DNA of 36,616 nucleotides, taken from the NCBI GenBank assembly GCA_046726415.1, contig JBKPAK010000254.1:1-36616 (forward strand), written 5' to 3'. Each line of letters starts with the position of its first letter. The stretch's first letter is position 1. Position numbers and translations under genes: made by a program. Shown here in pieces: positions 3,806 to 36,616 of the stretch. The DNA comes from Candidatus Methylomirabilota bacterium. GTDB lineage: Bacteria; Methylomirabilota; Methylomirabilia; Rokubacteriales; CSP1-6. Below the pieces are notes generated by a model. The model made no database searches. It worked only from the letters and a program-made list of their open reading frames with translations, and was not told the origin of the DNA.

Positions 3806-4912
3806 TCAGCGGAGACCCGGGCACGTGCTCCATACGACCGCCGTGTAACCACCCTCGCCGATACTCATGCCGGCGACCTTGCCCCCCGCGTTGATGGCAA
3901 ACGCCTGGCTCTCCGTGTCGCCACTGAGCGGTGGGAGCGCCGTGGGATGCCCGGTCTGGCTCCAGAACACTGCCGTTGATCCGTCGGATCCCGTGCTTCG
4001 GCCAGCCGCCACGCCATGATCGTTGACGGCGAATGCCTCGCTCTCCGTGTCGCCGGCCAGCGGCGAACGCAGTCTCGGTCGGCGAGCCCAGACGACCGCC
4101 GTATCGGGGCCGCCTCGACTGCTGTCGCCGGCGATCAGGCCGAAGATGTTGATGGCGTGCGCCTCGCTTCTCGTATCGCCCGGCGGGAGTGGCAGGGTCG
4201 TCGGCGTGCCGGCGAGGTCCCAGACGGTGGCTGAATCGACGTGGTCCGGCGTGGAGCTGAAGCCGACCACCCCGCCGAGCAGGTTGATGCCGAGCGCCGC
4301 GGCCTCGCTGGCTCCCTCCGCGGGCGGCAGAGGTGTGGGTCTCCCGCTCCGATCCCACACCACCGCCGTCAGCACCACCCCGCCGTGGGGTGCACCGAAT
4401 GCGCCGCGGCCCAGGCTGTACCCGGCGACCTGACCAAACGCGTTGATCGCGCGCGCAAAGCTCTCGGCGTCGCCGGACAAGGGGCGCAGAGGCGTGGCCA
4501 GGCCCTGCCGATCCCACACGACCGCTGTGGATCCTGCTCCCCGGCTGACCCCCGCGACTTCGCCGAACGCGTTGATCGCGTGCCCCTCGCTGGCGTAGTC
4601 GCTGGCCAGCGGCGGGAGCGCTTGAGGGAAGCCCAGAAAGCTCCATCTCACGGCCGTGGCGAAATTGCCATGGCTCGTGCCGGCCACCTCGCCGATGGGG
4701 CTGATCGCGCGAGCCTCGCTGTTAAGATGACCGGGCAGCGGCGAGAGCGGCACCGGAAGCTGAAGTCCCAAGAGCGACCAGGGCAGGCACCCAACTCCCA
4801 GCTCCGCGCCGGGCTCTGCGCGATCGGCAGCGAGAGCACCGACCCCGGGCACAACAACCGACAGAGCGAGAACCAGAGCCACAACCAGGAACGAGCAGCC
4901 TTGAGGAGTCAT
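3806..4912 (-). CDS. Exported HAF-like repeat protein (seven ~40-aa repeats, probable beta-propeller)
   Basis: ATG 4912 after GGAGG; signal peptide; 7 copies of LPPL.GD.ES.A.AIN..G.VAG.S...TAVVW. Confidence 0.8.
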   Translation of the reverse strand: MTPQGCSFLVVALVLALSVVVPGVGALAADRAEPGAELGVGCLPWSLLGLQLPVPLSPLPGHLNSEARAISPIGEVAGTSHGNFATAVRWSFLGFPQALPPLASDYASEGHAINAFGEVAGVSRGAGSTAVVWDRQGLATPLRPLSGDAESFARAINAFGQVAGYSLGRGAFGAPHGGVVLTAVVWDRSGRPTPLPPAEGASEAAALGINLLGGVVGFSSTPDHVDSATVWDLAGTPTTLPLPPGDTRSEAHAINIFGLIAGDSSRGGPDTAVVWARRPRLRSPLAGDTESEAFAVNDHGVAAGRSTGSDGSTAVFWSQTGHPTALPPLSGDTESQAFAINAGGKVAGMSIGEGGYTAVVWSTCPGLR

Positions 4913-4935
4913 CGCGTGCCTCCCGTGCATCCCGG

Positions 4936-5781
4936 CTATGGTGAGCAAAAGACCACCTCGAAGCTGGTGCCGGGCGGGCAGTCGTGCGAGCCGCCTTTGT
5001 CGTCGAACGAGTAGCTGTAGGCCGACGGGCACTGGCCGCGCACGAGCGCCACGTACTTCGTCTGCTCTATTGGTCCGGCCTGGCATTGACCAGGGGTCAC
5101 CGGTGGAAACGGGCAGCAGAGCTGCTCGCCGGGCTGCTGGCGCTCCGGCTTGCCCATCCCGTAGGGCGGAGGAGAGTTCCACTTCTTGCACGGCGACAGA
5201 CACTGCACAGTCTGGCTATTCTTGACGACGCGGAGGTCCCCGATTCCCAGGATCTCGTCCCTCGGGCAGGAGGCAAAGGCCATCGCGCAGCTCGTCGCCG
5301 TGCAGCGCCCGCCATCGCTCGTGCTCGGCGTGACCTTCGCGGACAGCGTATAGCCATCGACGAGCGAGATGTCGTAATAGGGCCGCGTCCCGGATCCCAG
5401 GGGAGCGTAGAAGAATTCGACCTTGGTGTCTCCCGGAGGCTCGCATCCCGTGGGCGGGCACGGCGGGACGGAGCTCCCGGCCAGACAGTTGTTGCCACTC
5501 TCGTCGCAACCGTTCTTCGGCCAGAAGCGGCCTCCCCATCCACCCTGGGGGATCGTATAGTTCGCCGTCTGCCCGGAATTGAGCTTCGCCGCGGGACTCG
5601 GATTGTCGCTGGAGAGCGGCGAAAAACCCGGGTTGGGGGTCTGGGCGACCCACACGGGGAACGCGCAACTGTTGTTGATGGAAATTCGGGGCGCTTGCGC
5701 GGCCCCGACCGCGGGATGGCCGACCACCACGAAAGCGACGAGCGCTGCCAAGGGCAAAGTTGATCTCGGATCGCGAATCAC
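4936..5781 (-). CDS. Thaumatin-like (PR-5 family) secreted protein
   Basis: GTG after GGAGG; signal peptide; N.C.FPVW, WGGRFW...GC, T..EF, YDISLVDGY, CLSPC, CPSAYSY..DD and terminal F.VVFC motifs; 16 Cys. Confidence 0.9.
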   Translation of the reverse strand: MIRDPRSTLPLAALVAFVVVGHPAVGAAQAPRISINNSCAFPVWVAQTPNPGFSPLSSDNPSPAAKLNSGQTANYTIPQGGWGGRFWPKNGCDESGNNCLAGSSVPPCPPTGCEPPGDTKVEFFYAPLGSGTRPYYDISLVDGYTLSAKVTPSTSDGGRCTATSCAMAFASCPRDEILGIGDLRVVKNSQTVQCLSPCKKWNSPPPYGMGKPERQQPGEQLCCPFPPVTPGQCQAGPIEQTKYVALVRGQCPSAYSYSFDDKGGSHDCPPGTSFEVVFCSP

Positions 5782-5989: not shown

Positions 5990-6076
5990 TCGCACTCGCC
6001 ACTCTGCGCCATGAATCGCACTCGCCGCCTCGTGCCATGAATCGCACTCGCCACTTTGCGCCATGAATCGCACTCG
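5990..6076 (+). repeat. 26-bp tandem repeat, about 3.3 copies, spanning the SGNH gene start
   Basis: TCGCACTCGCC-N7-GCCATGAA at 5990, 6016 and 6042, plus partial copy at 6068. Confidence 0.9.
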
Positions 6077-7508
6077 GAACCTCGCGCCCAGCCCCACCCC
6101 GGATGCCCACCTCCTGGGCGCTCTCTACCTTTTGGAAGTGGCGGCACTCGTGGCCCACGTCGCCTTCACCGCGAAGGGCTCCCGCCCGGTGCCCAATTTT
6201 CTGTCGAGTCCGCCCGGCGCGGTCTTCCTCGCCGCGGTGGTCGCACTTGTGGCGGCCACCGCCGCCATAGTGCATCGCTATCGCACGCGAGCGCGCCACG
6301 ACCCGCGGCGCTTCGCCTTCACCGTCATGCTGAACCTCGTTCCGGTTCTGCTCCTGCTGGCCAGCGGCGAGCTGGCCGTTCGTCTGCTGGCCCGATCGAC
6401 GCCCCGCGGGCCCGCCTTCATGAACACGCCCTTGCTGCCCCGGCGGTGGTCTGACGTCGTCGCGCGCAATGAGGCGATCCTGGCGCGCGTTGCGGGCACG
6501 GGGTCCTATCTCGTCCCCGACGAGCGGCTGGGCTGGGTGGTTGGGCCCGATCGCCAGAGTGCTGACGGCCTGAAGTTCAGCAGCGCCGAGGGCATCCGGA
6601 GCGCGCGGCCGGGCGTGGTCTTCGCGGACCGCCCGAGCTCTCACCGCATTGCCCTGGTGGGTGATTCCTTCACCTTCGGCCTCGACGTCAGCTACGAGCA
6701 GTCGTGGGGACATCAGCTCGAGCGCGCCCTGGGTCCCGGCGTTCAGGTCCTCAACTTTGGCGTCGAGGCCTATGGGATCGACCAGGCATATCTGCGCTAT
6801 GAGCGCGACGTGCGGCCCTGGCGGCCCAACGTCGTGATCCTCGGTTTCATCGACCACGATCTGTGGCGGTCGATGGCCGTGTACTTCTTCGTCAGCTTTC
6901 CGAGCTGGGAGTACCCTTTCGCCAAGCCGCGCTTCGTGGCGGACGGCGACCGACTGGTGCTCTTGAACGTTCCCCTTCCCTCACCGCAAGCGATCCTGGC
7001 CGCCCGGTCGATTCGCGACCTTCCCTTCGTCGAGTACGATCCGGGGTACCGTGAACAGGACTGGCAGTGGCGGGCGCTCGACCGGTCCTTCCTCTATCGC
7101 TTCCTCGTTTCGGCGTCTGGCCGGTGGTGGTCCAATCCGCGCGCAGCGCAGCAGCGGGTGTTCGATCTCAACGGCGCCATCATCCGCGCCTTCATCCGGC
7201 AGGCGCACGCCGAAGGATCGATTCCCCTCGTCGTGTACTTTCCCTCCGATCGCGATTTCCGGGCACGCGCCAAGGACCCCGGCTGGCGGAGTCTCGCCCA
7301 GACCATGTTGCGGACGAACGACATCCCGCACATCGATCTGACGCCCTGCCTGGCGGCCCTCGACCCCGCCCAGCGATTCCCCGCCGACGGTCGCTCCCAC
7401 TACGCGCCGCGCGCCAACGCGAAGGTCGCCGAGTGCCTGCGCGATGGCATCGCGTCATCGCTCGCGCGGCGGCCGGCGCAGCCGCTGAGGCGCGCCCCGG
7501 AACGCTGA
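6063..7508 (+). CDS. Membrane-anchored SGNH/GDSL hydrolase family protein
   Basis: About three N-terminal TM segments; ALVGDSFTFG (block I), NFGVEAYG (block II), C-terminal DGRSHY. Confidence 0.8.
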   Translation: MNRTRNLAPSPTPDAHLLGALYLLEVAALVAHVAFTAKGSRPVPNFLSSPPGAVFLAAVVALVAATAAIVHRYRTRARHDPRRFAFTVMLNLVPVLLLLASGELAVRLLARSTPRGPAFMNTPLLPRRWSDVVARNEAILARVAGTGSYLVPDERLGWVVGPDRQSADGLKFSSAEGIRSARPGVVFADRPSSHRIALVGDSFTFGLDVSYEQSWGHQLERALGPGVQVLNFGVEAYGIDQAYLRYERDVRPWRPNVVILGFIDHDLWRSMAVYFFVSFPSWEYPFAKPRFVADGDRLVLLNVPLPSPQAILAARSIRDLPFVEYDPGYREQDWQWRALDRSFLYRFLVSASGRWWSNPRAAQQRVFDLNGAIIRAFIRQAHAEGSIPLVVYFPSDRDFRARAKDPGWRSLAQTMLRTNDIPHIDLTPCLAALDPAQRFPADGRSHYAPRANAKVAECLRDGIASSLARRPAQPLRRAPER

Positions 7509-20796: not shown

Positions 20797-20860
20797 CGAC
20801 CGCGGCCTGGAACGCTCCTGCACTACTGCGACCGCGGCCTGGAACGCTCCTGCACTACTG
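20797..20860. repeat. Perfect 32-bp tandem duplication covering the ligase stop codon
   Basis: CGACCGCGGCCTGGAACGCTCCTGCACTACTG at 20797-20828 and 20829-20860. Confidence 0.95.
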
Positions 20861-22528
20861 CGCGTACTTCTGGCGCAGAACCTTTTTGTCGAGCTTGCCC
20901 ACGCTGGTCTTGTCGAGCGCCGAAACGGACCGCACCCGGCTCGGGACCGCCCACTTGGAGACCACGCCCTTGTCGGCATACCGCTGGACATGGACCTTGA
21001 TGTCATCCTCGGTGATCGTGTTCGCGCAGTCCGCCTTGGCGACGATCAGCGCCAGGGGGCGCTCCCCCCACCGCTCGTCCGGCACACCGATGACGGCGGC
21101 CTCGCTGACCCCCGGATGCTGGGAAAGGATGTCCTCGATCTCCAGCGAGGAGATCCACTCGCCACCCGACTTGATCACGTCTTTGAGGCGATCGGTGATC
21201 CCGACATAGTCGTCGGCGTCGATGCTCGCGATGTCGTTGGTGTGCAGATAGCCGCCCCGCCAGAGCTGCTCGGAGCTCCGAGCATCGCCGAGGTAGCCCT
21301 GGGTCAGCCATGGAGCCCGCACCACCACCTCACCGGCGGCTTTGCCGTCGCGGGGTACGTCGCGCATCTCCTCGTCGACGATTCGCAAATCCACGAGGGG
21401 CACCGGCCGGCCCGCCTTCGCTCGGATCTCCATCTGCCCGTTCGCATCGCGCCCGGCAATCTCGGGCGTGAGCTGCGCGATGGTGAGGATCGGGCACGTC
21501 TCGGACATCCCGTAGCCGGCGAAGACATCGATGCCTCGCGCCAGGGCCGCCCGGGCCAGCCCCTTCGACAGCGCCGAGCCTCCGATGATCATCTTGAAGC
21601 CGCTGAGGTCGACATCCTGGCTGCCCGGGCAGTTCAGGAGCATGTGCAGGATGGTCGGCACGCAGTGGGAGAAGGTCACCTTTTCGGTCTGGATCAGGCG
21701 GAGCAGCACGTCGGGCGCATAGCGGCCCGGGTAGACCTGCTTGACGCCCATGACGGTGGCCATATACGGGATGCCCCACGCGTGGACGTGGAACATCGGC
21801 GTGATCGGCATGTACACGTCTCCCCGATGGAAGCGCTGGCCCGCCGCCGCGGTCCCCAGGGCGGCCAGCCCGGCCAGGGTGTGCAGCACGAGCTGCCGAT
21901 GGCTGAAGTACACGCCCTTGGGAAGCCCCGTCGTCCCCGTCGTGTAGAAGGTCGTGGCGCGCGTGTTCTCGTCGACGTCACCGAACTCGTAGCCGGCTGA
22001 GCCCGACGCCAACAGCTCCTCGTACTCGGCCGCGATGGCCAGCGCGGTCGTCGGCCGATCGACCGCGTCGGTGAGGAGGACGTACGTCTTCACGGGCTCG
22101 ATCCGGTCCTTGATCTCCTCGAGCACCTGGAGAAAGTCGGCGTGGACCAGGACGACCGTGGGTCTGGCGTGGTTCAGCGTGTAGAGGATCTGCTCTGGCG
22201 AGAGTCGGACGTTCACCGTCTGGAGCACCGCCCCCATCATGGGCACCGCGAAGTAGCACTCGAGGTACCGGTGGCTGTCCCAGTCCAGCACGGCCACGGT
22301 GTCGCCAGGCTCGACGCCCAGGAGCGCGAGCGCGCTGGCCAGCTTGCCGATCCGCTGGCGCAGGGCCCGGTAGTCGTATCGCGTCAGATCCCGATAGACG
22401 ATCTCCCGGTTCGGCTCGGTGGCCAGCGCGGTGTGGAGCAGGTGCTTGACAAGCAGCGGATAGCCGTAGGCCGAGGGCGTCCGCTCGATGAGGTTCGCGG
22501 GCAGGCGGGTGTCGAGATCCGTCAGCAT
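20855..22528 (-). CDS. Medium/long-chain fatty acid--CoA ligase (AlkK/FadD-like)
   Basis: YTTGTTGLPKGV AMP-binding loop, PMFHVHAWG, GYGMSET, DRLKDVIKSGGEWISS, KTSVGK. Confidence 0.95.
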   Translation of the reverse strand: MLTDLDTRLPANLIERTPSAYGYPLLVKHLLHTALATEPNREIVYRDLTRYDYRALRQRIGKLASALALLGVEPGDTVAVLDWDSHRYLECYFAVPMMGAVLQTVNVRLSPEQILYTLNHARPTVVLVHADFLQVLEEIKDRIEPVKTYVLLTDAVDRPTTALAIAAEYEELLASGSAGYEFGDVDENTRATTFYTTGTTGLPKGVYFSHRQLVLHTLAGLAALGTAAAGQRFHRGDVYMPITPMFHVHAWGIPYMATVMGVKQVYPGRYAPDVLLRLIQTEKVTFSHCVPTILHMLLNCPGSQDVDLSGFKMIIGGSALSKGLARAALARGIDVFAGYGMSETCPILTIAQLTPEIAGRDANGQMEIRAKAGRPVPLVDLRIVDEEMRDVPRDGKAAGEVVVRAPWLTQGYLGDARSSEQLWRGGYLHTNDIASIDADDYVGITDRLKDVIKSGGEWISSLEIEDILSQHPGVSEAAVIGVPDERWGERPLALIVAKADCANTITEDDIKVHVQRYADKGVVSKWAVPSRVRSVSALDKTSVGKLDKKVLRQKYAQ

Positions 22529-30703: not shown

Positions 30704-30911
30704 GGTCGCCGTCGAGCGTATGGCCACCCGCGTTTGGTTGTCAAAGCGCCGGCCGACGCTCGAGCGCCGCCGCCCATTGTCACCCCGACGATCGCGTGGA
30801 TAGAATGGCCCGACCCCCGAACGCCGCGCCGTCATAGTGAAGCTGGTGCGTGCCTGCTGATTGGTTTCGCGGTGGAGCCTCAGGACATCACGCAGCATAG
30901 TGTAGTAGTTT

Positions 30912-31242
30912 ATGAACATCGACTACCGCCTCTTCTGGCTGTGGCCCGCGCGGCTCTGGACGAGCTGGCGGTCGAGCCTCGTCATTGTCCAGCCTGCGAC
31001 AGTTCTCGCGTGGCACCGCTAAGGCTTCCAGTTCTCCTGGCGTTGGCAGTCCAGGCCGAACGCGGTCGGCCGCCCGCGCCTCGCCTCGGAGCTTCGCCAC
31101 CTGAGCCGCCAGATGGCTCGCGACAATCCAAGGTGGGGCCGCCGGCACATCCAGGCGGAACTCGCCCTCCTCGGCTACCACGTCGCCGCATTGACCATCG
31201 CCAAGATTACATGCAGCGGCCGTCGCCCACGTGGCGCGCCTT
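30912..31242 (+). mobile_element. Degenerate transposase fragment (HTH region of an integrase-core/DDE type IS)
   Basis: RLFW.W..RLW..W.SSL.IVQP.TV..WHR*GF...W...SR...GRP...MARDNPRWG...IQ.EL..LG; in-frame TAA at 31020-31022, frameshift before YM...PSPTWRA, truncated before the DDE core. Confidence 0.8.
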
Positions 31243-31362
31243 ATACTCAGTCCGGTCCGAGTAGCGCAGGAGAGAGTAACCCTCTGAGCACACCGGTGCA
31301 GAAAATATGGGGGTCAGCGACTGAGCAGAAACAGCATGGAATTACAGGCAAAAGTTTGCCGA

Positions 31363-31409
31363 GGCTCATAACCCAAAGGTCGCTGTTTCAAATCCAGCCC
31401 CCGCAACCA
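31363..31409 (+). other. 3' half of an initiator tRNA-fMet(CAT) gene; att-site remnant, not an intact tRNA
   Basis: GGCTCATAACCCAAAGGTCGCTGTTTCAAATCCAGCCCCCGCAACCA: CAT anticodon loop, T-arm with one mismatch, CCA end; no 5' acceptor or D-arm upstream. Confidence 0.88.
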
Positions 31410-31418
31410 TTGACGACG

Positions 31419-31458
31419 AGGGGTTAGCGGACGCAGCATCCGCTAGCCCCTTTCGTTT
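31419..31458 (+). terminator. Intrinsic terminator-like hairpin after the tRNA fragment
   Basis: AGGGGTTAGCGGA-CGCAGCA-TCCGCTAGCCCCT followed by TTCGTTT. Confidence 0.7.
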
Positions 31459-31478
31459 ACCCAGACTTCACCCAGGAA
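31459..31478 (+). repeat. 20-bp direct repeat, copy 1 (arm-type site candidate)
   Basis: ACCCAGACTTCACCCAGGAA; ACCCAG units 11 bp apart. Confidence 0.85.
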
Positions 31479-31615
31479 GCGGCCGAAGCGAACGTGATCA
31501 GCGACGAGCCGCCGGCGATCGCGGTCACGATGCCACTGGCGATCCCGGCCCGAACATCAGCGCCACAGCCGCCCCGTCCATGAGCCCCCAGCCTACCGGC
31601 TTGCCCGCGGGTGTT

Positions 31616-32863
31616 CTACGCCGGCCGCCGGCCCACGGTCTGACGGGCCGAGGGCCGCCCTGGCCCGAGCACAACCAGGGCGGCCGCGACCGCCTGAAGC
31701 GCCGCGCACGCGCCGAGGGCGGTCCCGTAGCCTCCGCTCCAGTCGCGCACGACGCCGACCAGCGATGGCCCGAAGGCGAACGTGAACTGATTGATGCCGA
31801 CCACGAGCCCGACGAGGGCCGCGAATCCCTCGCGCGGCCACTCGACGGCCAGGATCAGTCCCGGCAGCGTCGTCAAGTTGCCGACGCCTAGCCCGAACAG
31901 CGCGCAGCCGGCATAGGCGATCGCCGGCGACGGCGCCGACGCCAGCAGTCCCACACCGACGATCTGGACGGCGAGCGTCGCGCACGAGACCAGCCGGCGA
32001 TCGAGCCGGTCGACCACGACGCCCACTGCCAGCCGACCGAGCAGCGCGGCGGCGGTTGTCGCGCTCACAGCGCGCGCCCCTCCACCCGGCCCGAGCGTGG
32101 GGGAGACGAGCGCCACGAGGTGCGTGAGCACCCCGACCTGCGCTGCGAGGCCCAGCGCGAACGGCGCCGACACGCTCCAGAACCGCCACGTCCGCACCGC
32201 CGCGGCGCGCCAGCCTTTCGGGAGGCTCGCCGGCGGCGTGGCCGGTTGTGATCTCATCGGATCGCCGTCGGGGCCGAGCCCGAGATCTTCGGGACCGCGG
32301 CGCATCACGCCGATCGCGACCGGGACGAGCACGATCACTAGGGCGAGCGCGGCGGCACCGAGCGCGGGCGTGAAGCTTGTCAACCCGATGAGCACGATCA
32401 GCCCCGGCGCGACGATCACGCCGCCGAGCGTCGCGCCGTTGAACGCCAGGCTGACGGCGAGGCCGCGACGCCGCTGAAACCACGGCGCGAGCACGATGTT
32501 GATCGCGGCACCGCTCATCGCGCCCCAGCCCACCGACATCACCAGAAATGCGGGATAGAGCTGCCATGGCCTGCCCACGACACCGAGCAGTGCGACACCG
32601 ATCGCCATCGCGACGGTGCCGACCGTCACGACGAGGCGCGGCCCGAGCCGCGCGTAGAGGTCGCCGGCGACGGTGCTCAGCAGCGCGCCGGCGACGTAGT
32701 ACACCGTGACCGGCGCCGAGACGGTAGACGCGGACCACCCGTGCAGGCGCTGCAGCGCCGCGACGTAGACGCTGAGGCCGTAGAAGCCCAGGCCGAAGCT
32801 AAGCAGCGCCATCACGAACGTCGCGCCCACGACGTTCCATCCGTAGAAATATCGCGCGCCCAT
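31616..32863 (-). CDS. MFS transporter
   Basis: YGW.VV N-terminus, about 12 hydrophobic segments, WF.RRRGLA.SLA..G, G...DR..RR. Confidence 0.9.
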   Translation of the reverse strand: MGARYFYGWNVVGATFVMALLSFGLGFYGLSVYVAALQRLHGWSASTVSAPVTVYYVAGALLSTVAGDLYARLGPRLVVTVGTVAMAIGVALLGVVGRPWQLYPAFLVMSVGWGAMSGAAINIVLAPWFQRRRGLAVSLAFNGATLGGVIVAPGLIVLIGLTSFTPALGAAALALVIVLVPVAIGVMRRGPEDLGLGPDGDPMRSQPATPPASLPKGWRAAAVRTWRFWSVSAPFALGLAAQVGVLTHLVALVSPTLGPGGGARAVSATTAAALLGRLAVGVVVDRLDRRLVSCATLAVQIVGVGLLASAPSPAIAYAGCALFGLGVGNLTTLPGLILAVEWPREGFAALVGLVVGINQFTFAFGPSLVGVVRDWSGGYGTALGACAALQAVAAALVVLGPGRPSARQTVGRRPA

Positions 32864-32972
32864 CCGCGACGTCGACGCTACGCGAGGCGCCCACGCGCGT
32901 CTCGCCGTTTTCGGACCTCATCGTCCGGGCGCCCGAGCGTTCGAGCGCGCGCGTGCTACGCTCGGCGTTGCC

Positions 32973-33563
32973 ATGAGCACGAGCCTCGCACTCGACCGAG
33001 CCCGCTGCGACCGCGCCCGGCGCGCAAGAGATCCGAAGTTCGACGGCCGATTCTTCACCGGCGTCCTGACGACGCGGATCTATTGTCGGCCGACCTGCCC
33101 GGTGAAGCCCGCCAAGTCCCGCAACGTCGTGTTCTTCGCGACGGCGGCCGCCGCCGAGCGGGCGGGGTTCCGTCCCTGCCTGCGCTGTCGCCCCGAAGCG
33201 GCGCCGGGAACGCCAGCCTGGCGCGGCGCCGCGGCGACGGTGACGCGCGCGTTCAGGCTGATCGAGGGCGGCTTTCTCGACGACGGCAAGCGCGTGGGAG
33301 ATCTGGCCGAGACACTCGGCATGACGAGCCGACATCTGAGCCGCCTCTTTGCCGAGCACGCGGGCGCGTCACCGTCGGCGGTCGCGGCGACCCGTCGCGT
33401 ACAGCGCGCGAAGCGGCTGGTCGACGAGTCGGCGCTGCCGATGGCGGCGATCGCCTTCGCGGCCGGCTTTCGCAGCATCCGCCGCTTCAACGCGGCGTTT
33501 CGCGCCGTGTACCGACGGCCGCCGAGCGCGCTCCGCGGCGCGAAGCGGTCCGCGCGCCCGTAG
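32973..33563 (+). CDS. AdaA-like methylphosphotriester repair/AraC-type regulator (Ada Zn domain plus HTH)
   Basis: RD..FDG.FF.GV.TT.IYCRP.C, GFRPC.RC.P; AraC HTH (S.RHL.RLF, AFAAGF.S.RRFN..F). Confidence 0.9.
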   Translation: MSTSLALDRARCDRARRARDPKFDGRFFTGVLTTRIYCRPTCPVKPAKSRNVVFFATAAAAERAGFRPCLRCRPEAAPGTPAWRGAAATVTRAFRLIEGGFLDDGKRVGDLAETLGMTSRHLSRLFAEHAGASPSAVAATRRVQRAKRLVDESALPMAAIAFAAGFRSIRRFNAAFRAVYRRPPSALRGAKRSARP

Positions 33564-33745
33564 CGTCCTCGCGCTCGCGCTGGCGGGACAGCGTGAACGC
33601 GAAGGGCCCGGCCGTTAATTCCCTTGCAGTAGGGCCGGCCAGGTACGTCAGCTGGCGAGGGTGCGCGACGAAGCGCGTTCGAGCCAATTTGCGCGGCGGC
33701 ATCACCGGCAGTAGATTGTCGTCGTGATCACGATGGTGACCCGTC

Positions 33746-34399
33746 GTGTCAGCACACCGGCGGACACCCCGGGACGAACGACGCCGCCGTCTCGGTCAGA
33801 ACTTCCTTCGTCCTGAGTTCGCTGATCGCCTGGTCGCCGAGGCCGACTTCCGGCCGGGTGAGCTGGTCGTGGAGATCGGCGCAGGACTCGGAGCGATCAC
33901 GATCGCGCTCGCCCACCGAGGGATCGACGTAGTGGCGGTCGAGGTTGATCCGATCTGTGTTCAGCGGCTCCGCGCCAGCATCCGTTGGGTGGGACATGTG
34001 CGGGTCGTGGAGGCTGATTTCCTAACATTCGCCCTGCCGACGCGACCGTTTCGGGTGATCGGGTCTCTTCCTTTCGGAGCGACGACGGAGATCCTGCGCC
34101 GCCTCCTCGACGACCCGAGGGTACCGCTCAAGCGGGCCCACGTCATCGTCCAGTGGGAAGTGGCCTGTAAGCGGGCAGCCGTACCCCCATCCACGCTGCT
34201 CTCGACCGTCTGGGCGCCGTGGTGGGAGTTCCAGCTCGGCCGCAGGATTCCAGCGGCGCAGTTCCGACCAGTCCCACAGGTCGATGCTGGCGTGCTGGTC
34301 GTGACCCGTCGGGGCCGCCCGATACTGCCGCCGGATATGGCCACCCCGTGGGCCGCCTTTGTACGATCGCATTGGCCCTTCGATCGAGCATCAGTTTGA
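33746..34399 (+). CDS. rRNA adenine-N6 methyltransferase, Erm/KsgA family, Erm-like short form
   Basis: RRRLGQNFL, VVEIGAG.G.IT, AVE.D, .DFL, V.GSLPF, Q.EVA.KR, F.P.P.VDAGVL; 217 aa. Confidence 0.85.
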   Translation: MSAHRRTPRDERRRRLGQNFLRPEFADRLVAEADFRPGELVVEIGAGLGAITIALAHRGIDVVAVEVDPICVQRLRASIRWVGHVRVVEADFLTFALPTRPFRVIGSLPFGATTEILRRLLDDPRVPLKRAHVIVQWEVACKRAAVPPSTLLSTVWAPWWEFQLGRRIPAAQFRPVPQVDAGVLVVTRRGRPILPPDMATPWAAFVRSHWPFDRASV

Positions 34400-34548
34400 T
34401 GACGAGCCTCACGCTGCCGCCGAACAACCCGCCGGCGCGGGTCCCGGTCTCGGTCAGCCGGCGACCGCGCGCGAGGACACCTCATCAGGCCCGCGGTGTT
34501 GACGAGAGATCTCGGCTAACTTTCTGAAGGACTTATACTTCCCTCGCC

Positions 34549-35610
34549 GTGGCCGAAGCCGCTCTCGCGAAATTCTCTGCTGACTTTCTCACCGAGCGCC
34601 TGCGTGCGAGTGGAGTGCTCCCGCGCGGGCGTGTGATCGCCGTCGACGCCGTCGAGCGTCGCTCCACGCTCGTTTCCACGATTGCGCCACTCCGGGTGGA
34701 ATACTCATCCGATGCGCCGGAAGAGACGCCCACACGCCTGTTCCTGAAAGCCACGCGAGGCGGCCTCGATCCCGGTTTGCAGTCAGTCGGCGAACGTGAG
34801 GTGGCCTTCTATCGGCACGCCGCGCCGCTGATGCCCGGCGGCCCAATTCCTCGCTGTTACGACGCGGAGTTCATCGACGGAAACTTCCATCTCCTGCTGG
34901 ACGATCTCTCGCAGACCCACACTACGATCACCCCCTGGCCGCTCCCGCCGAGCGACGAGGCGTGCGAGCGCATCATCGACACGTGGGCGAGCTTTCACGC
35001 GTTCTGGTGGCTTCACCCGAGCCTCGGCCGTGACGTGGGCACATTTCTCGACGAGGCCGCGCTGGCAAAGATCACGGCCGAGTATCGCGAGCGTTACGCG
35101 CGCTTTGCCAGAACGCTCGATGACCGACTGTGGCCGGCGGCCCGAGCGATCTACGCGCGTGTGCACGATGCGCGCGAGCGGCTGATCACTCCCGTGCGTC
35201 TCTATGCGACTTACACGATCGGCCACGGTGATGCGCACGTGTGGAACTTACTCTATCCGCGCGACGGTGTTACCGCCGCTGGCATTCTTCTGATCGACTG
35301 GGACAACTGGCGGATCGGACGTGCCGCCGCAGATCTCGCGTACATGATGGCGGTGCACTGGTATCCCGAGCGGCGCGCGCGGCTTGAAGCTCGACTCCTG
35401 GAGCGTTACCACGCCGGCCTCTGCACTCACGGCGTGACCGACTACAGTCTCGAGCGCCTGTGGGAGGATTACCGGCTGTCGGTTATCGGTCACCTGGCGA
35501 TCCCGATTTGGCAGCAGACGCTCGGGCTACCTCCCGCGATCTGGTGGTCCCATCTTCACCGCATCATCGCCGCTTTCGAGGATCTGGACTGCGCCACGTT
35601 TCTCGCGTGA
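34549..35610 (+). CDS. APH/ecdysteroid-kinase-like phosphotransferase
   Basis: LFLK, REV.FY, P.CY, LLLDDL, HGDAH.WN (Brenner motif), LIDW, DLAY. Confidence 0.88.
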   Translation: MAEAALAKFSADFLTERLRASGVLPRGRVIAVDAVERRSTLVSTIAPLRVEYSSDAPEETPTRLFLKATRGGLDPGLQSVGEREVAFYRHAAPLMPGGPIPRCYDAEFIDGNFHLLLDDLSQTHTTITPWPLPPSDEACERIIDTWASFHAFWWLHPSLGRDVGTFLDEAALAKITAEYRERYARFARTLDDRLWPAARAIYARVHDARERLITPVRLYATYTIGHGDAHVWNLLYPRDGVTAAGILLIDWDNWRIGRAAADLAYMMAVHWYPERRARLEARLLERYHAGLCTHGVTDYSLERLWEDYRLSVIGHLAIPIWQQTLGLPPAIWWSHLHRIIAAFEDLDCATFLA

Positions 35611-35661
35611 CACCTTTACCGTGGCCGCGCCAGCCAGGAGTTTGGAAGCCGTCGCCGTGAC

Positions 35662-35691
35662 ACCCAGACTTCACCCAGGAATTACCCAGGA
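35662..35691 (+). repeat. 20-bp direct repeat, copy 2, plus a third ACCCAG unit (arm-type site candidate)
   Basis: ACCCAGACTTCACCCAGGAATTACCCAGGA; units at 35662, 35673 and 35684. Confidence 0.85.
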
Positions 35692-35787
35692 AGTTGCGAG
35701 CCAAAGAGCCCCAAAGCTTCCTGCGGGAAAAGCGCTAATTTACGAGGCGTTGTTTGTGGCGCGTTGGCTCCAGTCCTGGTTTGGAAA

Positions 35788-35816
35788 GGGCTCATAACCC
35801 ACTGTACCGGGGTTCG
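35788..35816 (+). other. Second tRNA(CAT) anticodon-arm remnant (att core candidate)
   Basis: GGGCTCATAACCC followed by a diverged tRNA-like ...CCGGGGTTCG. Confidence 0.65.
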
Positions 35817-35868
35817 CAGCGGACGACAGCTAGCATGCAAAATTAAGCGGTTGCGATGCACGTCGCAC

Positions 35869-35902
35869 GGCTCATCGGGTTTTCAACCCAAAGGTCGGCG
35901 GT
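35869..35902 (+). other. Third tRNA-fMet remnant split by a 9-bp insertion
   Basis: GGCTCAT-[CGGGTTTTC]-AACCCAAAGGTCGGCGGT versus GGCTCAT-AACCCAAAGGTCG at 31363. Confidence 0.6.
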
Positions 35903-36079
35903 GAGACTCGCCCGCCACTGCCGAACGAAGCGCTCCACCTGGGAGTCGTCGGTGTAGCGGTGCACCTGGCGCGAACGAGCGCGTCGACTCCGCTCTCGGG
36001 GCAGATTCACAAGCGACAAGTGGGCCCGTGCTGACGCGCTCGGTCTTCCCAGGGCCCGGATGGCGGAGAACCGGTGGTG

Positions 36080-36442
36080 TCACGCCAGGAACTCAGTACA
36101 GCCGAGGTCGTCGATCGCGAGCATCACTCGCTCCAGGCCAGGCCACCAGATCCACGCACCGAGCTTGTGGGCGGCCTGCCACACAGGTGTAGCCATCTGC
36201 CAGAGCACCGAGAGACGATAGTCCTGCCATAACGCGTCGAAGGTGTAGCCACGCACGCCGTGAGTCACCAGCGTGGCGTGATAGCGCTCTAGGGATTGCC
36301 GCTCAAGCCGGCATCGGCGCTCCGGGGACCAGTACAACGCGATCATGTAGGCGAGATCATCGGTGGCCACGTCCACCCGCCAGCCGTCCCAGTCGATGAG
36401 TCGCACGTCCGCGTTGCCGGTATCGCGGGGGAACAAAACAAT
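36080..36442 (-). pseudogene. C-terminal fragment of a second phosphotransferase, paralog of 34549-35610
   Basis: LFPRD...RLIDWD.WR...A..DLAYM.A..W.PERR.RLE...LERYH...GV..Y....LW.DYRLSV aligns with the upstream gene; similarity ends just short of the HGDAH motif. Confidence 0.8.
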
Positions 36443-36616
36443 CGACTCGGTCCGGCTTCCGACTCGGACGCAACTGTCCGAGGTGGCGCAAGACGCGGGG
36501 CTGAGTCTGATCCGACACCGGACAGTGAGCTATCCGGTGGCGCCGAACCTTAGCACCTATGCCGAACACGTGGCGACGCGAACCTTCTCAACGCTGCAGC
36601 TTGTCTCCGACGAGGA

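Follow-up and report, generated by a model that had tools for sequence, protein, structure and literature searches.

The DNA analysed here (the window) is an entire 36.6-kb contig (C254; 36,616 nucleotides, nt) of G000, a metagenome-assembled genome (MAG) of Candidatus Methylomirabilota bacterium comprising 7.6 Mb in 352 contigs with 4.66% contamination. On balance, our results favour the view that positions 31363-35800 form a non-autonomous cassette resembling a cis-mobilizable element (CIME), namely one unit of an array built by tandem accretion at the anticodon loop of the initiator tRNA gene (tRNA-fMet) of Rokubacteria. The evidence consists of the anatomy of the cassette with its sharp limits, the recurrence of contiguous modules in other places, co-oriented arrays, a near absence of integrases and the similarity of the cargo between genomes. 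Below, C-numbers without prefix are contigs of G000, G-numbers are genomes of the family and L-numbers are fetched loci; the coordinates of all features are collected in Table 1.

Both ends of the cassette carry the 12-mer GGCTCATAACCC on the plus strand. If at most one mismatch is allowed, these are two matches against 0.08 expected, and 0 of 100 shuffled sequences reached two. Genome-wide, G000 holds four copies: the two in the window, one in the intact tRNA-fMet gene on C164 and one on C345. The left copy continues as the 3' half of tRNA-fMet, which is 89% identical to the sole intact tRNA-fMet of G000 (C164) and 98% identical to a variant on C77. Neither ARAGORN nor Rfam (E-values up to 1) calls a tRNA gene anywhere in the window, so that both tRNA copies are fragments. 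The hairpin that follows the left tRNA half folds at -30.5 kcal/mol (z = -6.39, 0 of 200 shuffles as good) and is retained in other modules, where compensating changes are visible; a simple consensus terminator scan did not list it, and the call is based on the fold. Just inside each end lies the 20-mer ACCCAGACTTCACCCAGGAA (exact at 31459 and 35662, with 0 expected), to which the right side adds a third 11-bp unit at 35684. The start of the core lies 127 nt from the upstream repeats and 96 nt from the downstream ones, and both distances are conserved. A first-pass annotation made from the letters of the window had described the anticodon-arm repeat bracketing four cargo genes, the tRNA 3' half and terminator on the left, the identical 20-bp sequences and the lack of a recombinase between the ends, and each of these observations stands.

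The ends of the cassette are found joined elsewhere in the same genome. On C345 the P arm, core, tRNA 3' half, terminator and P' arm are contiguous, with 91% (P' side) and 79% (P side) identity to the cassette ends. A second and more diverged joined module is present on C32, together with a lone P arm 4 kb away and GNAT, M20-peptidase and AadA-like genes in between. Given that the right and left ends of the cassette are joined on C345, the arm-core-arm site predicted in the first-pass annotation does exist, in the form of a junction between units. The view that the ends are attachment (att)-like and derive from tRNA-fMet, with their breakpoint in the anticodon loop, is likewise supported. Contiguous modules of approximately 245 bp also occur in many other Rokubacteria MAGs. 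Each module runs from two to three ACCCAGGAA units (11 bp apart) through a P arm of about 95 bp, the core in the anticodon loop, the tRNA 3' half and the terminator hairpin to two more ACCCAGGAA units. The core-proximal block of the P arm in the window is 79% identical at nucleotide level to that of C345 and 74% to that of C32.

The limits of the module are sharp. An alignment of 14 modules is conserved from the first ACCCAG unit to about 6 nt past the last, and the sequence beyond the P' repeats was different in every locus read. Assembled contigs from four soil metagenome runs diverge from the window at 31363/31365, 31478 and 35661, and their summed depth is 48-1838 in bins of the module against 0-29 in bins of the cargo. 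Other units with a tRNA-fMet 3' half and terminator hold direct repeats of their own, about one helical turn apart, behind which an integrase gene in convergent orientation directly follows (GTATCCGA twice, 11 bp apart, on C164; TGCACCC three times on G019:C60). Because these repeats occupy the same place, the position of the ACCCAG units fits that of arm sites. Position and conservation limits together support the idea that the 11-bp ACCCAG units behave like arm sites, albeit putative ones.

In lambda-type attP sites, arm-type sites flank the core on either side. The module shows a likeness to such a site, as it measures about 240 bp and has direct repeats roughly one helical turn apart at both outer edges, an arrangement that would suit the N-terminal domain of an integrase. 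It differs in that the repeats point the same way on both arms and that a tRNA anticodon stem-loop serves as core. Within the P arm, a hairpin with a 9-bp stem (CGAGGCGTT / GGCGCGTTG, window 35741-35771) can be drawn, for which some compensating changes, all in one pair, are seen among 12 modules. As a firm structure it was rejected: the variable pair is paired in only 15 of 25 distinct P arms and the other predicted pairs are invariant.

At the right end of the cassette the core precedes a diverged tRNA-like 3' half. The same P-core-ACTGTAC... junction recurs in G041 (reverse-complement coordinates 48202-48400), L075 and L029, so that the cassette adjoins, at its right end, a unit of a different att type.

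The first-pass annotation had further suggested that the cassette may be one unit of a tandem array, and this idea is borne out by contigs of 0.26-3.28 Mb in other genomes, on which both the module architecture and arrays are seen. On G041:C2 (3.28 Mb), 24 of 24 hits lie on one strand over approximately 165 kb, starting with an intact tRNA-fMet that is followed by 23 module pieces, three of which are complete. Co-orientation is likewise seen on G042:C1 (6 of 6 hits) and G043:C29 (6 of 6), and on G045:C15 one strand carries 3 of 4 hits. All nine P-arm repeat pairs of G041 fall inside the array, whereas a control with the reversed pattern gave 0. Among the 157 open reading frames (ORFs) of a 190-kb stretch of G041, Pfam recognised GNAT, SnoaL and DinB proteins, methyltransferases, an erythromycin esterase fusion, adenylate-cyclase/AAA/TPR proteins and three rve_3 transposases, and no intact tyrosine recombinase. 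All that this array retains of integrases is a frameshifted gene next to the tRNA and two N-terminal pieces, 49 and 65 amino acids (aa) long.

Some further contents of the G041 array (G041:C2, ~2.06-2.23 Mb; L119-L128) may be mentioned here. It holds extra paralogs of leucyl-tRNA synthetase (LeuRS), of an isoleucyl/valyl-type tRNA synthetase and of Lon protease; for LeuRS and Lon, which have the look of housekeeping genes, other copies are present elsewhere. The erythromycin esterase is fused to an isoaspartyl-methyltransferase-like domain. A tRNA-Gly(ACC) is called inside the array (reverse-complement coordinates 147309-147377) right after an amidohydrolase gene with 89.6% nt identity to a counterpart on C131 (8128-9740); this tRNA may be the target of another island or may itself be carried.

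To count the module across genomes we used 80 loci with the 20-mer, taken from a collection of contigs with one genome per species. The exact 20-mer occurs 89 times in these loci (91 stretches by the count of the tool); by our own count, 52 of the 80 loci are labelled Rokubacteria or Methylomirabilota. Modules derived from tRNA-fMet are present in 76 of the 80 loci (92 hits); a 20-mer dispersed without linkage to tRNA fragments, which the first-pass annotation had named as an observation that would speak against it, is thus not what is found. The 92 hits divide into 13 intact tRNA-fMet genes with hairpin (terminator) and P', 13 complete and 8 partial P-core-P' modules, 13 junctions with another element family at the core (anticodon loop) and 17 such junctions on the T-loop side; the remainder are assorted fragments. 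Viral contigs gave 0 matches to the 20-mer.

The other 28 of the 80 loci belong to MAGs labelled Acidobacteriota, Gemmatimonadota, Actinobacteria, Chloroflexi and others (e.g. L029, L030, L039, L052, L087, L092). These labels could reflect mis-binned Rokubacteria contigs or transfer between phyla; the 20-mer of L092 looks like a chance match within a gene. At least three other element families with conserved right ends abut the same tRNA-fMet. Two of them break at the T-loop/acceptor side and one at the anticodon loop (L036, L050, L042, L061, L079; L093, L067, L052, L048, L037, L097; L082, L057, L056, L100 and C77 of G000). As several families abut it, tRNA-fMet is a hotspot shared by several integrase specificities.

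Inside the window cassette four ORFs occupy both strands and encode an MFS transporter, an Ada-N/AraC regulator, an Erm-like methyltransferase and an APH/EcKL kinase. No recombinase family (Pfam) and no integration or transfer genes (Pfam, NCBIfam) were found among them. The MFS gene, which has weak NCBIfam matches below cut-off to the monocarboxylate/oxalate-formate type, is divergent from the regulator gene. The Erm-like protein is short: NF000499 scores 187.6 bits against a cut-off of 212 and is covered over model positions 1-192 of 244. Relatives of the kinase gene at 89-94% nt identity are present in G167 and G170; in G170 the homology extends past the gene into the first arm unit and then ends. 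The MFS+Ada pair is found at 73-83% nt identity in about 30 family genomes in other contexts. In ten loci of relatives with the MFS+Ada pair or the APH gene, read about 9-10 kb outwards, there was neither a module nor any other window gene. Synteny of the four genes with their flanks in relatives that lack the repeats, which would likewise have spoken against the first-pass annotation, is accordingly not seen in these loci.

In the unit to the right of the cassette lies an APH-like fragment. At nucleotide level it is 71% identical to 35290-35514 on the other strand and 70% identical to C133. Recombination between the two inverted APH-like stretches (35290-35514 and 36176-36400, 71% nt) could flip the junction.

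Comparison between genomes is suggestive of exchange of array cargo between lineages. Between G000 and G041 the array cargo is 83-93% identical at nucleotide level, against 74-80% for the flank upstream of the tRNA and 72-75% for the sensor/regulator pair of the window. Between G041 and G043 the LeuRS paralog carried as cargo is 96.3% identical and the tRNA-upstream flank 76.9%. The modules themselves have 80-93% identity where the core flanks of the genomes compared have 72-80%. Shared genes occupy different places in the arrays; a gene pair that is adjacent on C32, for instance, lies 90 kb apart in G041.

Integrases proved scarce. None of the 29 matches to PF00589 in G000 lies on C254, C345, C32, C131 or C77. 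The first-pass annotation had proposed to look for a tyrosine integrase with the same arm repeats beside the intact tRNA-fMet, and none with these repeats was found there. The integrase gene on C164 does converge on the intact tRNA-fMet, but its own repeats (GTATCCGA) differ from ACCCAGGAA. Moreover, its product aligns only from residue 128 of a 406-aa relative, and consequently lacks about 127 N-terminal residues. Integrases beside tRNA-fMet pieces are also broken or truncated in G001, G011, G040 and G041 (tallies of broken integrases include the unpublished genome G011, the naming of which requires permission of its depositors; other claims are independent of it).

Among the 80 loci, a home-made hidden Markov model detected integrase-like ORFs in six, none of them in the canonical position beside P'. 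The candidate in L080 was rejected, being an IS3-type insertion in the P arm. Only L087 pairs tRNA-fMet and P' with a full-length integrase. Relatives of this enzyme at 15 other loci stand beside tRNA-Met, Arg, Leu, Gly or Val genes and have no ACCCAGGAA pairs; the closest full-length ones adjoin tRNA-Met genes in Acidobacteria MAGs, and more distant ones adjoin other tRNAs. A full-length relative on C197 was also rejected as the cognate enzyme, since it adjoins tRNA-Arg. Judging from these sequences, a tRNA-fMet-specific integrase clade exists in these bacteria; no cognate integrase with the arm repeats of the module was found among them.

The soil metagenome contigs were also compared with the window. 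They cover the cargo independently (e.g. 32690-34713 with 4 differences), and one contig (35746-36291) bridges the right junction with 0 differences. The left junction (31163-31363) is bridged by no contig of the four runs and one contig diverges after 31205, so the linkage of the left end to its chromosomal flank depends on the assembly alone. Several joints lead from the right end back to the left one (35770>31369, 35751>31363, 35697>31373 and 35801>31387). They carry P-arm letters of other module copies, however, and thus represent other complete modules, so that they speak neither for nor against excision of this cassette.

How such a cassette might move can be outlined as follows. A lambda-type tyrosine integrase, supplied in trans, would bind the repeats via its arm-binding domain and exchange strands in the anticodon loop; the best candidate would be an enzyme of the tRNA-fMet-specific clade that is represented on C164, in L087 and at the head of the G041 array. 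A circle with one module and its cargo (4426 bp for the window unit) would result from recombination between two cores and could then re-enter any core or the tRNA gene. Movement in trans is inferred. The window cassette itself is probably immobile at present in G000, because it shows a deletion in the P arm, a mismatch in the T-stem and a left partner that is not an att site, while the sole integrase of the tRNA-fMet type is N-terminally truncated.

Several observations weigh against a cassette mobilised in trans. An integrase with ACCCAGGAA-type arms was found neither in G000 nor in five long-contig genomes, the 16 loci of the L087 integrase and its relatives, or viral contigs. In L087 the integrase lies 4.4 kb from P' without an adjoining tRNA fragment, and the two N-terminal fragments in the G041 array indicate that some units once had an integrase of their own. 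No circle or empty site specific to the cassette was found in the contigs of the four soil runs or in 159 family genomes. The left tRNA half of the window has one T-stem mismatch (GCTGT/CCAGC, against GCTGG/CCAGC in other copies), and its P arm has a 9-nt deletion relative to four of four other aligned P arms. Elsewhere the four cargo genes are not seen as a set: the MFS+Ada pair occurs apart from the APH gene, and neither has a module within about 9 kb. The contrast in identity between cargo and core was drawn from few segments. Finally, the model as it stands offers no explanation for the precise abutment of new cargo on the module.

It might be argued that the units are inert fossils: once-autonomous tRNA-fMet islands whose integrases were deleted, with the units fixed and the att modules as functionless leftovers. 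Such a history would account for the frameshifted or truncated integrases beside tRNA-fMet in G041, G000 (C164), G001, G011 and G040, for the N-terminal fragments inside the G041 array and for the many partial pieces (8 P fragments, 8 with P' only and 9 without P' among 92). It would also suit the insertion sequence (IS) copies that interrupt arms (L080; the rve_3 genes in arrays) and the deletion and mismatch of the window copy, and the route to CIMEs given in the literature is indeed one in which integrative and conjugative elements (ICEs) or integrative and mobilizable elements (IMEs) decay (PMC5704250). Nonetheless, 23 module pieces stand against three integrase traces in 165 kb, whereas neutral decay of 1.2-kb genes and 0.25-kb sites predicts the reverse. 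Without a single changed letter, the 20-mer is present 89 times in the 80 loci, which come from many species; modules are better conserved than core flanks with conservation ending at the outer repeats, and cargo common to diverged lineages is 90-96% identical at nucleotide level. We regard the fossil explanation as possible but rather unlikely, and favour mobilisation in trans over it because the module outlasts the integrase genes, is conserved only within its functional limits and is accompanied by cargo that looks exchanged.

Two further explanations deserve consideration. In one of them the module itself is the unit, scattered between ordinary genes either as a small mobile repeat similar to a miniature inverted-repeat transposable element or as a structured-RNA gene ending in a tRNA-like 3' part and a terminator; the cassettes would then be no more than the DNA that happens to separate two copies. 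Indeed the module is the sole conserved part, no gene is conserved at either edge, a strong terminator closes it, cargo abuts at nearly the same nucleotide in unrelated units, and there is the P-arm hairpin with some compensating changes in 12 sequences. That hairpin, however, has its variable pair formed in 15 of 25 P arms with the other pairs invariant; Rfam has no family for the module, and a promoter-like site was not found in 31000-36616. In addition, copies are not scattered but lie, with one orientation, in a single region downstream of tRNA-fMet. The anticodon loop is the exact breakpoint of half-modules, and the P' half is attached to intact tRNA-fMet genes, which is the signature of site-specific recombination in the tRNA. 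We consider this explanation very improbable. The other is that the contig is chimeric at its repeats, in which case the bracketed cassette would be unreal. The fragmentation and contamination of the MAG (352 contigs, 4.66%) and the unbridged left junction behind a multi-copy repeat would fit, but the independent metagenome contigs over the cargo and the right junction, as well as the architecture and arrays on contigs of up to 3.28 Mb in other genomes, make an artefact hardly conceivable.

Table 1. Features at the right-hand end of the window, in order of position. IS, insertion sequence; HTH, helix-turn-helix.
Feature	Position	Strand	Remarks
Probable IS (transposase) remnant, multi-copy repeat	30925..31242	+	parts chromosomal genes from cassette
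Spacer 'X'	31243..31362	.	abuts left core where tRNA 5' half or P arm would stand
Left core and tRNA-fMet 3' half to CCA	31363..31409	+	core 31363-31374, anticodon stem-loop
Terminator-like hairpin with U-rich tail UUUCGUUU	~31412..31457	+	conserved module part
P' arm, two 11-bp-spaced ACCCAG units, putative arm-type integrase sites	31459..31478	+	module outer edge
Cargo 1, MFS transporter	31616..32863	-	PF07690 (MFS_1)
Cargo 2, Ada N-terminal zinc domain fused to AraC-type HTH regulator	32973..33563	+	PF02805 (Ada_Zn_binding) and PF12833 (HTH_18)
Cargo 3, Erm-like rRNA adenine methyltransferase, short	33746..34399	+	PF00398 (RrnaAD)
Cargo 4, APH/EcKL-family kinase	34549..35610	+	PF01636, PF02958; no NCBIfam family
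P arm, distal, three 11-bp-spaced ACCCAG units	35662..35694	+	module outer edge
P arm, core-proximal block GTTGC...AAGCGCTAATTT...GTGGCGCGTTGGC...GGAAAG	35695..35788	+	
Right core, anticodon stem-loop 12-mer	35789..35800	+	
Start of next unit, diverged tRNA-like 3' half ('type-2' P' side)	35801..35920	+	
APH-like fragment in next unit	36080..36436	-	inverted relative to cargo 4; no Pfam family

The remainder of the window (1-30919) is filled with ordinary chromosomal genes, and relatives of these left-side genes in G041 lie at about 0.49 Mb on C2, far from the array at 2.07-2.23 Mb. The repeat that separates them from the cassette has matches of 72-80% nt identity on C27 (two), C326, C348, C59, C225, C11, C8, C73 and C207. 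The ORF that spans it (30734-31264) has no Pfam or NCBIfam family; copy number and a reading of the translation indicate that the repeat is probably an IS remnant. Spacer X has no match in any fetched locus and, searched as 31236-31362, was found in one of 159 family genomes, which is G000 itself.

Three repeats further to the left were also noted. A perfect 32-bp tandem duplication with its two copies back to back (20797-20860) lies just upstream of, or overlaps the end of, a gene for an AMP-binding enzyme (20855-22528, minus strand). A 47-nt repeat is present three times, 26-bp-spaced and 81-89% alike, between thaumatin-family and GDSL-lipase-like genes (5990-6088). At 3858-4737 a unit of about 70 nt occurs six times with a spacing of about 129 nt. 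The ORF around it (3806-5203, minus strand; 465 aa) matches no Pfam family and looks like a repeat protein.

By analogy, the closest precedent is found in the ssrA island arrays of Dehalococcoides. McMurdie et al. (2011, PMC3146451) describe islands that are stacked in one orientation inside some 100 kb downstream of a small-RNA gene. A direct repeat of the gene's 3' end delimits each of them, and their cargo is accessory and strain-variable. An integration module is present in 16 of the 31 islands, and the rest are suggested there to be cis-mobilizable by accretion. In that system the target is the tmRNA gene, the repeat measures 20 bp and a serine integrase (DsiB) is present in about half of the units (PMC3146451). 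The Rokubacteria arrays, in contrast, use the anticodon loop of tRNA-fMet and a ~245-bp module with 11-bp repeats; a tyrosine integrase would be expected and almost no unit has one.

CIMEs as described for the relatives of ICESt1/ICESt3 in Streptococcus thermophilus keep attL and attR but have genes for neither integration nor transfer; they stand in tandem with other elements at the target gene's 3' end, from which a related integrase would be able to remove them singly or along with a neighbour (PMC5704250). With flanks of the attL/attR type and no integration or transfer genes, the window cassette corresponds to this description. The CIMEs treated in that article stand alone, each being the decayed relative of a co-resident ICE or IME that is known (PMC5704250), whereas up to about 20 units stand in a row in Rokubacteria and no autonomous relative with the same arms was found.

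The Islander resource (Hudson et al. 2015, PMC4383910) tabulates 2083 islands with an anticodon-centred attP site. These are alike in that the tRNA is split at the anticodon, the element brings a replacement 3' part and the displaced fragment marks the other end (PMC4383910). Islander, as defined there, requires an integrase gene per island, so integrase-free units are not called by design; among 3919 islands it reports 125 tandems of at least two and only 4 of at least three (PMC4383910). The window cassette falls outside this definition, having no integrase and no intact tRNA gene at one end. Our literature search on Rokubacteria and Methylomirabilota found nothing relevant on such arrays (supplementary island lists were outside its scope), and that on integrase-less or trans-mobilised tRNA islands returned known work on ICEs, IMEs and Salmonella genomic island 1 (SGI1). 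The present case differs in the tRNA-fMet target, the long arm-core-arm module at each junction, the scale and the near-total lack of integrases.

Chromosomal integrons hold long co-oriented arrays of recombinase-free cassettes with a recurrent recombination site and serve as a reservoir of accessory genes. An integron cassette was considered for the window and rejected. The head of the array is tRNA-fMet without intI or attI, and the recombinase remnants there belong to the tRNA-targeting integrase clade. In place of a hairpin-type attC there is a ~245-bp module with a tRNA 3' half, there is no common promoter, and the cassette has four genes on both strands with a regulator of its own. An Xer/dif (IMEX) origin, considered by eye against the dif consensus, was dropped as well, since a single half-site resembles the anticodon arm.

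Rokubacteria are abundant, uncultured soil bacteria with large genomes, in which gene gain has been little studied. The initiator tRNA gene emerges as a hotspot in these genomes, and the recombinase-free cassette arrays behind it match the largest chromosomal integrons in length. Across genera, the att module gives the impression of being maintained by selection. Array cargo, which seems to pass from lineage to lineage, includes antibiotic-modifying and target-protecting types (Erm-like, APH-like, ANT-like, erythromycin esterase) besides extra tRNA synthetases. As a simple marker, the 20-mer and the module can serve to find arrays in metagenomes. Should an integrase that uses the module be found, the two would together form an arm-dependent recombination system that is compact and has a defined site of 245 bp. 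As a tentative and at present doubtful extension, Rokubacteria might run a phylum-wide, integron-like capture platform. In such a platform tRNA-fMet would act as attI and the maintained ~245-bp module as attC, while a tyrosine integrase acting in trans would shuffle multi-gene cassettes into arrays of at least 165 kb, which would give these bacteria a shared accessory pool including resistance-like genes and spare aminoacyl-tRNA synthetases.

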